From Hyphomicrobiaceae bacterium (GTDB lineage Bacteria; Pseudomonadota; Alphaproteobacteria; Rhizobiales; Hyphomicrobiaceae), in the NCBI GenBank assembly GCA_046154645.1, contig JBJXDZ010000047.1:3269-67268 (forward strand): a stretch of 64,000 nucleotides of DNA. The letters run 5' to 3'. A model generated the notes under the pieces. That model was not told the DNA's origin. It was given only the letters and a program-made list of their open reading frames with translations, and did not search any database. Shown here piece after piece: positions 20,614 through 24,668 of this stretch. Each line of letters begins with the position of its first letter. The first letter of the stretch is position 1. Made by a program: the position numbers and the translations under genes.

Positions 20614-21036
20614 TCAGCGCCGGTAAGGGTAGCAGCGGGCCGGATCGAGCGTCATCTTGAAGTGCGCGCCCAGCAGTTTGATGGCATCGCCATAGGCCGG
20701 ATAGGGATCGCCATTGGCCTCGCCCACCACGATCGGCCGGAAGGTCTTGTCTTCCTTGGCCCCCGGCGGCAGCATGGCCGTCACCAGCGGCTGCCCGTCG
20801 CGATTGCGCAGCGTGATGAACAGCGGCATGGCGCGCTGGATGTGCGCCTTGAGCCCGATATTCCGCTCGATGTAGAGGCCTGACGGCGGCGGCACATAGC
20901 TTTTCGCAGCCAGTTCCCGTGCCTGCCGGAAATACTTGTCGACGGCATGCTTCATGGCCGTGGCCTCGACCTGCGCCTCGCCCTCGGTTTCCAGGCGAAA
21001 CCAGGTGTTGGGCGGCGCGTCGCATACGAACTGCAT
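20614..21036 (-). CDS. hypothetical protein
   Basis: 140-aa ORF with GC3-rich codon usage and no motif I recognise (MQFVCDAPPNTWFRLETEGE...). Confidence 0.6.
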   Translation of the reverse strand: MQFVCDAPPNTWFRLETEGEAQVEATAMKHAVDKYFRQARELAAKSYVPPPSGLYIERNIGLKAHIQRAMPLFITLRNRDGQPLVTAMLPPGAKEDKTFRPIVVGEANGDPYPAYGDAIKLLGAHFKMTLDPARCYPYRR

Positions 21037-21283
21037 CGTCGACTCCCGAAGGAACGCTACGAGGCGGAAAGCTTACGGCTCCTCATCGGACAGTTCAACC
21101 CACTGCCGAAGCGCAGCATACTATTCCGGCAACGCTGTGATCCTGTGGCACAGTCGACGGCCGCGCCAGTCGGACGGGTGTTGTGGCGGCAGTTGCGTTG
21201 GCACCCACCCACCATTGCCCTCGTGCCCCGCGCCAACCTCCTGTAGGTTGACCACCCGACCACCGATCGAGGCCACCGCCTTC

Positions 21284-22579
21284 ATGTCCCGTGACCAGTA
21301 TCCCCGCTTCGACACATTGGCGCTTCACGCCGGCCAACAGCCCGACGCCGCGACCGGCGCGCGGGCCGTGCCGATCTACCAGACCACCTCGTTCGTCTTC
21401 GACGACACTGAGCACGCCGCAGCGCTGTTCAACCTGGAACGCGCCGGCCACATCTACTCGCGCATCTCGAACCCAACCGTCGCCGTGTTCGAAGAGCGCA
21501 TGGCGGCGCTCGAAGGCGGCGTCGGTGCCGTTGCGACCGCCAGTGGCCAGGCAGCCCTGCATCTCGCCATCGCCACCTTGATGGGGGCCGGCGCGCACAT
21601 CGTCGCCTCGACCCGCATCTACGGCGGCTCGCACAACATGTTCATGCACACGCTGCCGCGTTTCGGCATCACGACGACGCTGGTCGATCCGCGCAATCCC
21701 GCCGAATTCGCCAAGGCCATCCGGCCCGAGACGCGCCTCGTCTACGCCGAGACACTCGGTAATCCCGGCCTCGAGGTGCTCGACATCAAGGCCACGGCCG
21801 ATGTTGCCCACGCGCACGGGCTGCCGCTGATGATCGACTCTACTTTTTCCACGCCCTATCTCAACCGGCCGTTCGAGTGGGGCGCCGACATCGTCATGCA
21901 CTCCGCCACCAAATTCATCGGCGGTCATGGCGTGGCCATTGGCGGCGTCGTTGTCGATGGTGGCCGTTTCGATTGGAGCGCCTCAAAAAAGTTTCCGACA
22001 CTTACCGAGCCCTACGCCGGCTATCATGGCCTGACCTTCGCCGAGGAGTTTGGTCCCTCCGCCTTCGTCATGCGCGCGCGCACCGAGGGCCTCAGAGATT
22101 TCGGCGCCTGCATGAGCCCGCAAACGGCATTCTACCTGCTGCAAGGGCTCGAAACGCTGCACGTCCGTATGGGCCGCCACGTCGTCAACGCAGAGGCCGT
22201 TGCCAAGTTTCTCGCTGGTCACCCAGCCGTCGCCTGGGTCAAGTATCCAGGCCTCGAATCCCACGCCGACCATGCGCTGGCCAGAAAGCAGTTTCCCAAA
22301 GGTTCGGGCGCCATGCTGAGCTTCGGCATCAAGGGGGGACGCAAGGCCGGCCGCATCCTGATCGAGCGCCTGAAGGTGTTCTCGCACTTGGCGAACGTTG
22401 GCGATGCAAAGTCACTGGTCATCCATCCCGGCTCCACCACGCATCAGCAGATGAGCGCCGAGGAGTTGTCGCGCGCCGGCATCGGCGAGGAACTGGTCCG
22501 CCTGTCGATCGGTCTCGAGGATGTGAGCGACCTCACCGAAGATCTCGATCAGGCCCTCAAAGCCGCGCAGAAATCCTGA
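21284..22579 (+). CDS. metY: O-acetylhomoserine aminocarboxypropyltransferase (sulfhydrylase), PLP-dependent
   Basis: ATG at 21284. Begins MSRDQYPRFDTLALHAGQQPDAATGARAVPIYQTTSFVFD, with HSATKFIGGHG (PLP lysine). Confidence 0.9.
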   Translation: MSRDQYPRFDTLALHAGQQPDAATGARAVPIYQTTSFVFDDTEHAAALFNLERAGHIYSRISNPTVAVFEERMAALEGGVGAVATASGQAALHLAIATLMGAGAHIVASTRIYGGSHNMFMHTLPRFGITTTLVDPRNPAEFAKAIRPETRLVYAETLGNPGLEVLDIKATADVAHAHGLPLMIDSTFSTPYLNRPFEWGADIVMHSATKFIGGHGVAIGGVVVDGGRFDWSASKKFPTLTEPYAGYHGLTFAEEFGPSAFVMRARTEGLRDFGACMSPQTAFYLLQGLETLHVRMGRHVVNAEAVAKFLAGHPAVAWVKYPGLESHADHALARKQFPKGSGAMLSFGIKGGRKAGRILIERLKVFSHLANVGDAKSLVIHPGSTTHQQMSAEELSRAGIGEELVRLSIGLEDVSDLTEDLDQALKAAQKS

Positions 22580-22599: not shown

Positions 22600-23397
22600 A
22601 TGAAACTTTCAGTCCTCGGCCACGACGTCTATGCCGCGACTGGCGGCCAGACCTTCGACGCCTCCAAGCCCACGATCGTCTTCATTCATGGCGCCGGCCT
22701 CGATCACACCTGCTGGGGACTGCAGAGCCGCTGGTTCGCCTGGCATGGCTGGTCGGTGCTGGCGATCGATCTGCCGAGCCATGGCCGCTCGGGTGGTGCG
22801 CCACTCGCGTCGATCCCGGCCATGTGTGATTGGGTGCTGGCGCTGCTCAAGGCCGCAGGCGTTGCGAAGGCCGCTCTCGCCGGCCATTCCATGGGCGCGG
22901 TGATCGCTTTGGAAACGGCGGCCAAAGCGCCGGAGTGCGTGACGCATCTGGCCCTGCTCGGCATCGCCGCCGCCATGCCCGTACATCCCAACCTGCTCGC
23001 CGCTGCCCGCGAGACGCCGGCCAAAGCCTACGACATGATGACCGGCTGGTGCTTCGCCAATGCCGCCAAGATCGGTGGCAACACGGCGCCGGGGCTGTCG
23101 ATGACCGGCGGCGCGCGGGCCCTCTTCGACCGCAACGCACCGGGCGTGCTGGCCGCCGATCTCGCCGCCTGCAGCGCCTGGACTTCCGGCCTCGATAGCG
23201 CGCGCAAAATCACGCTGCCGACGCTGCTCGTGCTCGGCGCGCAGGATGTCATGACGCCTGCCAGGAAGGGCCAGGAACTGGCGGCCGCCATCGACGGCGC
23301 CAAGGCAGTGGTGCTGCCCGCCTCAGGCCATATGATGATGCAGGAGGCCCCCGACGCCACGCTCGACGCGCTCATCACTCATCTCGGTCACCGCTGA
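22600..23397 (+). CDS. alpha/beta hydrolase
   Basis: ATG at 22600. Contains IVFIHGAG and the nucleophile elbow GHSMGA. It starts 20 nt after the metY stop. Confidence 0.85.
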   Translation: MKLSVLGHDVYAATGGQTFDASKPTIVFIHGAGLDHTCWGLQSRWFAWHGWSVLAIDLPSHGRSGGAPLASIPAMCDWVLALLKAAGVAKAALAGHSMGAVIALETAAKAPECVTHLALLGIAAAMPVHPNLLAAARETPAKAYDMMTGWCFANAAKIGGNTAPGLSMTGGARALFDRNAPGVLAADLAACSAWTSGLDSARKITLPTLLVLGAQDVMTPARKGQELAAAIDGAKAVVLPASGHMMMQEAPDATLDALITHLGHR

Positions 23398-23411: not shown

Positions 23412-24668
23412 ATGGCTCGCCTCGAAGACTTCGACGACATCAATCGTGCGCACCTCGAGCACATGGAGATGCCGCGGTTTGCCACGACACCGTGGACCAA
23501 GACCAAGCCGCCGTCACAACTGCGCGTGGCCCTGATCTCGACGGCTGGCCTGCAGCGGCGCGGCGACCGACCCTTCGGTCGCGGCTCTGGTGACTACCGG
23601 TTGCTGCCGGGCGATCTGGCGGCCAGCGATCTGGTCATGAGCCACATCTCGACCAACTTCGACCGCACCGGCTTTCAAGAAGACCACAACGTCGTCTATC
23701 CGATCGATCGCTTGCGCGAGTTGGCGGACGCCGGCGTCATCGGCTCGGTCGCCGCCATGCATTACGCCTTCATGGGCGCCACACCACCCGCCGCCATCGA
23801 GAAGTCAGCGCGGCAGCTGGCTGCCCTGCTGCGCAAGGATCAGGTTGACGCCGTGCTCCTCGTGCCGGTTTGACCCGCCTGCACGCGTGCCGTCGGCGCG
23901 CTCGCCCACTATCTCGAAAGCGAAGGCCTGGCCACCGCGGGGATCAGTCTCATTCGCCTGCACAGCGAGAAGATCCGCCCGCCGCGCGCGTTGTGGGTAC
24001 CTTATGAGCTTGGCCGCCCGCTTGGCGCACCCAACGACAAGACCCGGCAAACCAGCGTCCTGCGGGCCTTGATTGCGCTGTTCGAGGCGCCGTCGGGTCC
24101 GGTGCTCGAAGATTTCCCCGACGATGGCAAGACGGCCGCTGCGCCAGAGGACCTCTCGGGGATGGCCTGTCCGATTACCTTCAAGCGAGGCGCCGACGAC
24201 ACGTCGCTCGCGGCCGAAGTGCGCGGTGAGATTGCGCAACTGCAGCCCTGGTACGACCTCGCCCGCGAACGGCGCGGCCGCACCACCTTCGGCGCCGCCG
24301 GACTTGAGATCGAAGATCTGGTCGAACTGCTGATCGCCTGGGCCGACGGAACACCGCCCACGTCACCTGCAGCAAGCTTAGCACCGGAGAACCAGCTCAA
24401 GCTGGCCGTCGAGGATCTGAAGGCCTTCTACCTGGAGGCCGCGAACGCGCAGCCGACACCCGGCGCATCACCGCTGAGCAGTGCCGAGCTTGGCGACTGG
24501 CTGTGGCGCGAGACGGCTGGGGGACGTTTGCTGGTGGCAGTGCACCGGGCCTGCATCGCCTCGGCGCATCCGGCCTGGCGTGTGGTCGGCGCCAACTTCA
24601 TCGTGCCACGGTCGCAGTGGACCCGGCTCGGCATCGATGCCAGTGCTTGGCTCGACGAAAAGAAGTGA
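23412..24668 (+). CDS. PrdB/GrdB-family (selenoprotein B-like) reductase with one in-frame TGA at 23871-23873, candidate selenocysteine codon
   Basis: Track ORFs 23412..23873 and 23991..24668 share a frame. The 39 codons between them contain no stop and are GC3-rich. The read-through gives ...DQVDAVLLVPV-U-PACTRAVGALAHYLESEGLATAG... The family blocks YPIDRLRELADAG and HYAFMG lie upstream. Confidence 0.62.
23885..23901 (+). promoter_or_regulatory. candidate bacterial SECIS upper stem-loop
   Basis: GCGUGCC-GUC-GGCGCGC forms a 7-bp stem (one G-U pair) starting 11 nt after the UGA. GU sits in the apical loop. Confidence 0.4.

Follow-up and report, generated by a model that had tools for sequence, protein, structure and literature searches.

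Does the in-frame TGA at positions 23871-23873 of a Hyphomicrobiaceae contig end a short protein, or does it encode selenocysteine (Sec) within a longer one? We addressed this question in a 64,000-nucleotide stretch of contig JBJXDZ010000047.1 (here called the window), in which two open reading frames (ORFs) on the forward strand lie on either side of this codon. By comparison with related sequences, we conclude that positions 23412-24668 are very probably a genuine Sec-encoding gene for a single selenoprotein of 418 residues. Our confidence is not higher because of one main gap: the search for Sec machinery covered the window, a small part of the source genome.

The upstream ORF (23412 to 23873) starts with ATG and encodes 153 residues, and the downstream ORF (23991 to 24668) is in the same frame. 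The frame that begins at 23412 runs to the terminal TGA at 24666-24668 and is interrupted once, by the TGA at 23871-23873. The remaining two frames are interrupted by 7 and 5 stops in this interval. The 39 codons that separate this TGA from the first possible restart, a TTG at 23991, have a G+C content at the third codon position (GC3) of 0.85, compared with 0.82 and 0.77 in the two flanks. Their pattern across the three codon positions (GC1/GC2/GC3) is coding-like, and the shifted frames have no such pattern. Translation across the stop gives ...LLVPV-*-PACTRAVGALAHYLESEGL..., and the TGA is codon 154 of a 418-residue read-through product, with ...LLVPV-U-PACTRAVG... at codons 149-163. The motifs YPIDRL and HYAFMG lie upstream of the TGA codon. 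Together, the two ORFs form a single gene of 418 codons, which gene calling has split wrongly. A first-pass annotation, made from the letters of the window, had described a single TGA splitting one gene, two ORFs in frame, an open and coding-like intervening segment, a TGA at codon 154 after the two motifs, and a product of 418 residues. All of this was confirmed.

The TGA is a fixed feature of the gene family. We surveyed its column in the DNA of 80 reference-genome loci, the locus L003 (loci are numbered with an L) and the window. Counting the tandem paralogues of five loci, this survey covered 89 genes. All 89 have TGA at the column of codon 154, and none has a Cys codon there. These genes span the Alphaproteobacteria, Desulfobacterota, Dehalococcoidia, Beta- and Gammaproteobacteria, and others. 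In more distant relatives of full length, the column contains Cys, within a PVCPxC motif (P0001, P0004-9, P0021, P0027, P0028 and P0095), and the Cys codons TGT or TGC were confirmed in the DNA of L084-L089. The curated prdB genes of Peptoclostridium acidaminophilum and Terrisporobacter, which encode 237 and 241 residues, have an in-frame TGA at codon 151 that falls in the same alignment column as the window TGA. In P. acidaminophilum the surrounding sequence is ...DAAVFTAG*GTCHRS.... The first-pass annotation had placed the PrdB Sec near residue 150, which agrees with the curated codon. In the column that it singled out, full-length homologues have Cys, all closer homologues have TGA, and curated PrdB has a Sec TGA. 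PrdB with this Sec has been characterized experimentally (Kabisch et al. 1999, as cited in PMC1088965).

Conservation extends to both sides of the codon. U154, P155, C157 and T158 are invariant in 86 Sec-type sequences, and P254 is present in 84 of them. Downstream of the TGA, T175, P190-R192, G201-P203, C253 (85 of the 86) and W280 are invariant and synonymous sites are free; judged from this pattern, purifying selection on the protein persists past the TGA. The first in-frame start codon after the TGA is not conserved. It occurs anywhere from codon +2 to codon +67, and it is codon +40 in the window.

Shortly after the UGA, the RNA can form a hairpin of the bacterial Sec insertion sequence (bSECIS) type. 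The stem is GC-rich and has 7 bp, with a minimum free energy of -13.5 kcal/mol, and the loop begins 18 nt after the UGA. A lower stem is made up of two or three further pairs that involve the Cys157 codon (23881-82 with 23904-05). Of 86 sequences, 65 have the 11-35 pair and 73 have the 12-34 pair. The base following the UGA is C in 86/86 sequences, and the post-UGA consensus, UGACC-N4-UGY-ACG-CGC-GCC-GUN-GGC-GSG-CU, is near-invariant across phyla. Across the 86 distinct sequences, 89.5% of stem cells hold standard pairs, a share that falls to 29-59% if the 3' partner is shifted by 1-3 nt. The loop reads GUN in every one of them, and pair 16-30 has undergone a double change from C-G to U-A in three. 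The hairpin agrees with all four published bSECIS criteria (PMC13188914).

Because the T-R-A-V-G peptide encoded here is itself conserved, selection on the RNA has to be judged from synonymous sites. In the stem arms, third-position entropy is 0.25 bits at Thr+4, 0.33 at Arg+5, 0.71 at Ala+6 and 0.35 at Gly+8. Val+7, in the loop, has 1.65 bits, and about 75 four-fold sites of equal conservation elsewhere in these genes have 1.0-2.0 bits. The low wobble entropy of the stem arms therefore indicates selection on the RNA beyond that on the protein alone. We used five Cys-type genes as a wobble control. The two closest retain 6/7 hairpin pairs, and the three distant ones retain 4-5/7 and have changed codons; with only five genes, this control is suggestive, not decisive. 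In the two closest Cys-type homologues (L084, 8001-9215, and L085, 6030-7139), the SECIS-like sequence (ACG CGC GCC GTG ..., 6/7 pairs) follows a TGT or TGC codon. These hairpins fit a recent Sec-to-Cys conversion in which the SECIS persisted as a fossil.

In some relatives, the gene is located next to the genes for Sec synthesis and insertion. We found 14 tRNA genes in the flanks of related loci, and 7 of them are tRNA-Sec genes within 10 kb of the gene. Clustering of neighboring ORFs, combined with Pfam, placed SelD near the gene in seven loci, SelB in five and SelA in four. The order in L054 is selA-selB-tRNA-Sec-gene. In L008, 16 nt separate the end of selD from the start codon of the gene, and in L016, selA-selB-selC lies downstream of the gene. 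As a rough estimate that was not computed, chance would be expected to produce such linkage in well below one locus in 82. The Sec reading proposed in the first-pass annotation is thus supported by the TGA in 89/89 genes, the Sec/Cys column, the bSECIS hairpin and the sel linkage in relatives.

Several observations count against this reading. The window contains no selA, selB, selC or selD, as judged by ARAGORN, Rfam at gathering thresholds, and tblastn with the SelA, SelB and SelD proteins of related loci, and it has no tRNA gene and no Rfam match at all. However, this absence is uninformative, because 64 kb is a small part of a genome of several Mb. The Sec competence of the source organism is a deduction from its relatives, and the literature searched holds no experimental data for any member of the clade. 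The single-sequence fold of 23865-23935 is no better than that of shuffled sequences (z = +1.07), and pair 17-29 is a G-G mismatch in about half of the family. The argument for the hairpin is therefore based on the cross-genome comparison and not on thermodynamics alone.

If the TGA were a real stop, the locus would be a pseudogene or encode a truncated 153-residue protein, possibly with a separate downstream polypeptide from a split gene. Gene callers have annotated hundreds of records in this way, and UGA is a normal stop codon of the source genome. However, a disabling mutation would not recur at one codon, in one column, in 89/89 genes of several phyla. Protein-level conservation with free synonymous sites runs between the TGA and any restart, and in the window a restart at codon +40 would delete the invariant T175 and P190-R192. 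We consider a real stop highly improbable. A global reassignment of UGA was excluded, since nine Pfam-supported genes around the locus, the selenoprotein gene included, all end in TGA. There is a vanishingly small probability that a TGC or TGT Cys codon was turned into this TGA by mistake in sequencing or assembly. Cys-type homologues do exist, but two independent Logan assemblies (L001 and L002, from SRR28962028 and SRR28962016) share the identical TGA and protein, and all 80 of the closest reference-genome loci have the TGA.

UGA-154 might also be read through without Sec, by near-cognate Trp or Cys suppression or another local recoding, with the hairpin merely stimulatory. UGA followed by C is a leaky termination context, which this gene has, and Sec machinery was not found in the window. 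This explanation does not account for the embedding of the gene among selA, selB, selC and selD in several relatives, nor for a hairpin that fits the SelB-type bSECIS consensus, with its G-U loop at the right distance. Moreover, homologues that lack the UGA have Cys, and the experimentally characterized PrdB has Sec, at the same column. It therefore appears extremely improbable, and we continue with UGA-154 as a Sec codon. The features of the gene on this reading are collected in Table 1.

Table 1. Features of the very probable selenoprotein gene and its predicted product, in window coordinates
Feature	Position	Strand	Basis or details
Shine-Dalgarno-like AGGAA	23399..23403	+	8 nt upstream of the ATG; read from the sequence
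Complete selenoprotein gene (very probable), 418 codons plus stop, Sec at codon 154	23412..24668	+	Homologues align over residues 1 to ~413; PrdB profile spans the TGA
N-terminal GRDB/PrdB-like alpha/beta domain (predicted), residues 1 to ~237	23412..24122	+	PF07355, TIGR04483, 27-33% identity to curated PrdB, AlphaFold2 model
UGA as Sec, U154 (very probable)	23871..23873	+	TGA in 89/89 family genes; Cys in distant homologues; column of PrdB Sec151
Cys157 codon, partner of U154 in U-P-x-C; 5' side of lower SECIS stem	23880..23882	+	Invariant, 86/86
bSECIS core hairpin (predicted)	23885..23901	+	5' arm 23885-23891 GCGUGCC; loop 23892-23894 GUC; 3' arm 23895-23901 GGCGCGC
Linker (predicted), residues ~238-264, with near-invariant C253-P254	24123..24203	+	Lower-confidence, non-regular segment of the AlphaFold2 model
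All-helical family-specific C-terminal domain (predicted), residues ~265-418	24204..24665	+	No Pfam match; AlphaFold2 helices with pLDDT above 90

What kind of protein does the gene encode? The Pfam family PF07355 (GRDB) matched the read-through product with 36.9 bits and the N-terminal ORF with 40.6 bits, above the cutoff of 22. TIGR04483 (PrdB) aligned with residues 28-221, across the TGA, with an E value of 6e-28. Its score of 97.8 bits falls short of the equivalog cutoff of 300. The models for GrdB, GrdF and GrdH also scored below their cutoffs (45.5 versus 65.45 bits for TIGR01918; 37.8 versus 602, 58.7 versus 800 and 55.5 versus 775 for the others, TIGR01917 and NF040794/5), and only positions ~208-424 of the GrdB-family profiles (~431 positions) were matched. 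The C-terminal region had no Pfam match. A phmmer search with this region against 1.84 billion representatives returned 584 matches. Among the 150 matches listed, nearly all are post-TGA fragments or full-length proteins of ~370-415 residues, and no other architecture occurs.

We built an AlphaFold2 model of the closest full-length Cys form, P0001 (53% identical), from a 66-sequence alignment. The model has a predicted local distance difference test score (pLDDT) of 92 and a predicted template modeling score (pTM) of 0.90. It contains an alpha/beta domain, with alternating strands and helices up to the equivalent of residue ~234, then a less regular linker, then an all-helical C-terminal domain. 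The Cys that corresponds to U154 directly follows a beta-strand, at the N terminus of a helix. This is the usual place of CxxC and UxxC redox motifs. A sequence search of the PDB with the family profile gave only noise (E > 0.2), and a Foldseek search with the model found no PDB match at E <= 1e-3. Apparently, a structure of the GRDB family has yet to be solved.

The alpha/beta domain is homologous to PrdB over nearly the whole length of PrdB. The two share the Sec-TGA column, the U-x-x-C arrangement, and the motifs SH..DR/DN, FP[IL]DRL, H..FMG, PR and G.P. However, PrdB ends near residue 237 of the window protein, where the linker starts. The window protein is about 180 residues longer, close to the extension of about 185 residues given in the first-pass annotation, and it has a third conserved Cys (C253) and the helical C-terminal region. 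The genetic context differs too. Clostridial prdB is preceded by prdA, which encodes the pyruvoyl subunit, in both of our controls, and the Terrisporobacter operon (L092) reads prdA, a small ORF, prdB. In contrast, neither the window nor any of the family loci (80+ loci, +/-10 kb) yielded a tblastn match to PrdA at E <= 1, although both clostridial controls were positive. No Prd or Grd component (grdA, grdE, grdC and grdD included) was present among the 20 recurrent neighbor clusters with Pfam annotation.

Because the equivalog cutoff failed and PrdA is missing in cis, we assign the window protein, from its sequence, to the GRDB/PrdB superfamily but not to the orthologues of D-proline reductase PrdB. 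The first-pass annotation had called it a PrdB/GrdB-family gene. This holds for superfamily membership, with PF07355 above its cutoff, but not for PrdB orthology. One might still propose that the protein is a genuine PrdB subunit of D-proline reductase to which a further domain has been fused, and that its pyruvoyl partner PrdA is encoded elsewhere in the genome. TIGR04483 is the best NCBIfam match, the Sec column and UxxC motif are those of PrdB, and both the databases and the selenoproteome literature call these proteins proline reductase. However, the score falls far short of the cutoff, identity to real PrdB is only 27-33%, and the protein has 418 residues where a single domain of ~240 would be expected. 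No PrdA homologue accompanies the gene where clostridial prdB has prdA directly upstream, and no neighbor is conserved (10/82 loci at most). The names of the metagenome-assembled genomes also suggest many aerobic marine, lake and soil hosts, in which Stickland fermentation would be unexpected. We therefore regard a true PrdB as improbable. The gene probably encodes a non-clostridial "PrdB" selenoprotein that stands alone and does not belong to a canonical PrdA/PrdB D-proline reductase.

The clostridial controls yielded observations of their own. A PrdA homologue, possibly truncated, lies directly upstream of P. acidaminophilum prdB (L090, 5705-6973) and aligns with residues 165-581 of the Terrisporobacter PrdA at 47% identity. 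It is missing from the PLSDB feature table, so gaps in that table are no evidence of gene absence. In Terrisporobacter, prdB is carried by the 21.7-kb plasmid pTPHSE2 of T. petrolearius (L092) and by seven similar plasmids of ~21 kb. The one plasmid inspected, pTPHSE2, also carries prdA and selD, and is thus a mobile replicon that combines proline reductase with a selenium-activation gene.

The likeness to GrdB, GrdF and GrdH is of the same partial kind. They belong to the same Pfam family, and the window protein matches the C-terminal half of their profiles, including the Sec region. However, it lacks the N-terminal half of GrdB, its gene lacks grdA, grdE, grdC and grdD neighbors, and its motif is UxxC where GrdB has UxxCxxC (PMC13188914). 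A cultured alphaproteobacterium, Roseomonas haemaphysalidis, encodes a 302-residue Cys-type (N-C-P-V-C) "selenoprotein B family protein" on plasmid p546-2 (L091, 4899-5807). Its gene is convergent with a gene for the protein adenylyltransferase SelO, and its C-terminal extension is different and shorter.

We suggest the following mechanism. During translation, the hairpin would be read as a bSECIS. SelB-GTP with Sec-tRNA(Sec) would bind it and deliver Sec to UGA-154, and termination by release factor 2 would be avoided. The product would consist of the PrdB/GrdB-like alpha/beta domain, the linker with Cys253-Pro254 and the helical domain found only in this family. The U154-P-A-C157 motif is predicted at the helix N terminus directly after a beta-strand of the alpha/beta domain. 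By analogy with PrdB and GrdB, Sec154 may be the catalytic nucleophile. In this scenario, Sec154 and Cys157 would form a selenenyl-sulfide, which would be re-reduced by a thiol or an NAD(P)H-dependent system. Here we infer, rather than observe, Sec insertion in the source organism, the selenenyl-sulfide chemistry and the substrate.

The genes around the locus were compared across relatives. The most recurrent neighbor is found in 10/82 loci, so there is no conserved partner and guilt by association yields no function. The recurrent neighbors are the sel genes, a histidine kinase, a regulator with MEDS and helix-turn-helix domains, a pyridine-nucleotide disulfide oxidoreductase, an amidase and transporters. 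The regulator is located just downstream of the gene in nine loci. In seven loci, mostly from Desulfobacterota (L017, L019, L044, L048, L049, L061 and L066; e.g., L048, 3116-4546), a class-I pyridine-nucleotide disulfide oxidoreductase that ends in ...SCCAE lies at a median distance of ~5 kb. This enzyme is a candidate reductant for the selenenyl-sulfide.

In the window, a Cys/Met-metabolism pyridoxal phosphate (PLP) enzyme (Cys_Met_Meta_PP, 20936-22579) and an alpha/beta hydrolase (22600-23397, stop codon at 23395-23397) precede the gene on the forward strand, with gaps of 20 and 14 nt. These two genes and the selenoprotein gene are probably co-transcribed as one operon. No sigma-70-like promoter and no intrinsic terminator was detected in the window between 22400 and 25400. 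Downstream are a convergent RidA gene, a 3-hydroxyisobutyrate-dehydrogenase-like gene and a GMC oxidoreductase gene. In L017, a homologue of the PLP enzyme directly precedes the gene; L013, L038 and L045 have one on the opposite strand, 4-6 kb upstream. A connection with the metabolism of sulfur or selenium amino acids is conceivable.

Two further observations concern the gene itself. Five loci (L030, L051, L065, L068 and L076; e.g., L051 at 10460 and 11689) have two tandem paralogues, each with its own TGA and hairpin, and the paralogues may form a hetero-oligomer. An antisense ORF over the TGA region (23805-24239 in the window, reverse strand) recurs in 32 loci, and part of it is called as a gene in L001 (2451-2609, reverse strand). 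It looks like an artifact of a conserved, high-GC coding region, and it could worsen misannotation.

How does this gene relate to selenoproteins already described? UxxC selenoproteins called "proline reductase PrdB" were the third most abundant family in the Sargasso Sea, with 42 sequences (PMC1088965), and 235 Sec and 110 Cys forms of PrdB, assigned to pfam07355, were counted in the Global Ocean Sampling data (PMC2398784). A PrdB selenoprotein is also listed for Anaeromyxobacter and Geobacter uraniumreducens (PMC1794560) and for the Olavius delta-1 symbiont (PMC1976440). These four papers treat the family as proline reductase, and their available text makes no mention of a C-terminal domain, a missing PrdA or a position in sel clusters. 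Reviews from 2022 and 2026 still place it under D-proline reductase. The catalogued marine and deltaproteobacterial proteins resemble ours in belonging to pfam07355, in having UxxC with Sec first, in their non-clostridial hosts and in having more Sec than Cys forms. Our loci include the Olavius delta-1 symbiont (L045) and Geobacteraceae (L033 and L069), and we therefore consider the window family to be almost certainly the catalogued one, as matched by descriptors and host overlap. A literature search under "PrdB-like" returned nothing. The window gene extends a family of PrdB-related selenoproteins that has been in the catalogues since 2005. By itself it is one more member and no discovery.

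The databases hold this family largely in pieces. The read-through product, searched against 5.8 billion proteins, matched mostly entries of ~250 residues that cover only its C-terminal 60%, and a minority of full-length entries of ~400 residues. A search with the N-terminal domain found >100 proteins of exactly 153 residues, named "D-proline reductase PrdB" (JGI) or "selenoprotein B family protein" (NCBI), and >100 C-terminal fragments of ~250 residues are on record. The splitting of such genes by gene callers, which the first-pass annotation had anticipated, is evident from these numbers. The window gene and hundreds of its orthologues are thus stored as two fragments, a 153-residue "PrdB" or "selenoprotein B family" entry and a ~250-residue "hypothetical protein." The near-invariant signature TGACC-N4-TGY-ACGCGCGCCGTNGGCG could be used for the automatic repair of the split entries.

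According to the 2005 and 2008 surveys, this is one of the more abundant selenoprotein families of ocean metagenomes. Its "proline reductase" label rests only on distant homology. The missing PrdA, the family-specific extra domain, the third conserved Cys and the sel-cluster position in some relatives all argue for a different function. We lean, with some reserve, toward the view that the "PrdB-like" selenoproteins of ~410 residues are a distinct family of stand-alone enzymes that have no pyruvoyl partner and are not proline reductases. The location of the gene within or next to the selA-selB-selC-selD cluster of some Alphaproteobacteria suggests that this family may be a principal reason why they keep their Sec machinery. 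If this view is true, such a PrdA-independent family would combine a U-P-x-C domain with C253-P254 and a helical domain that has no structural relative in the PDB.

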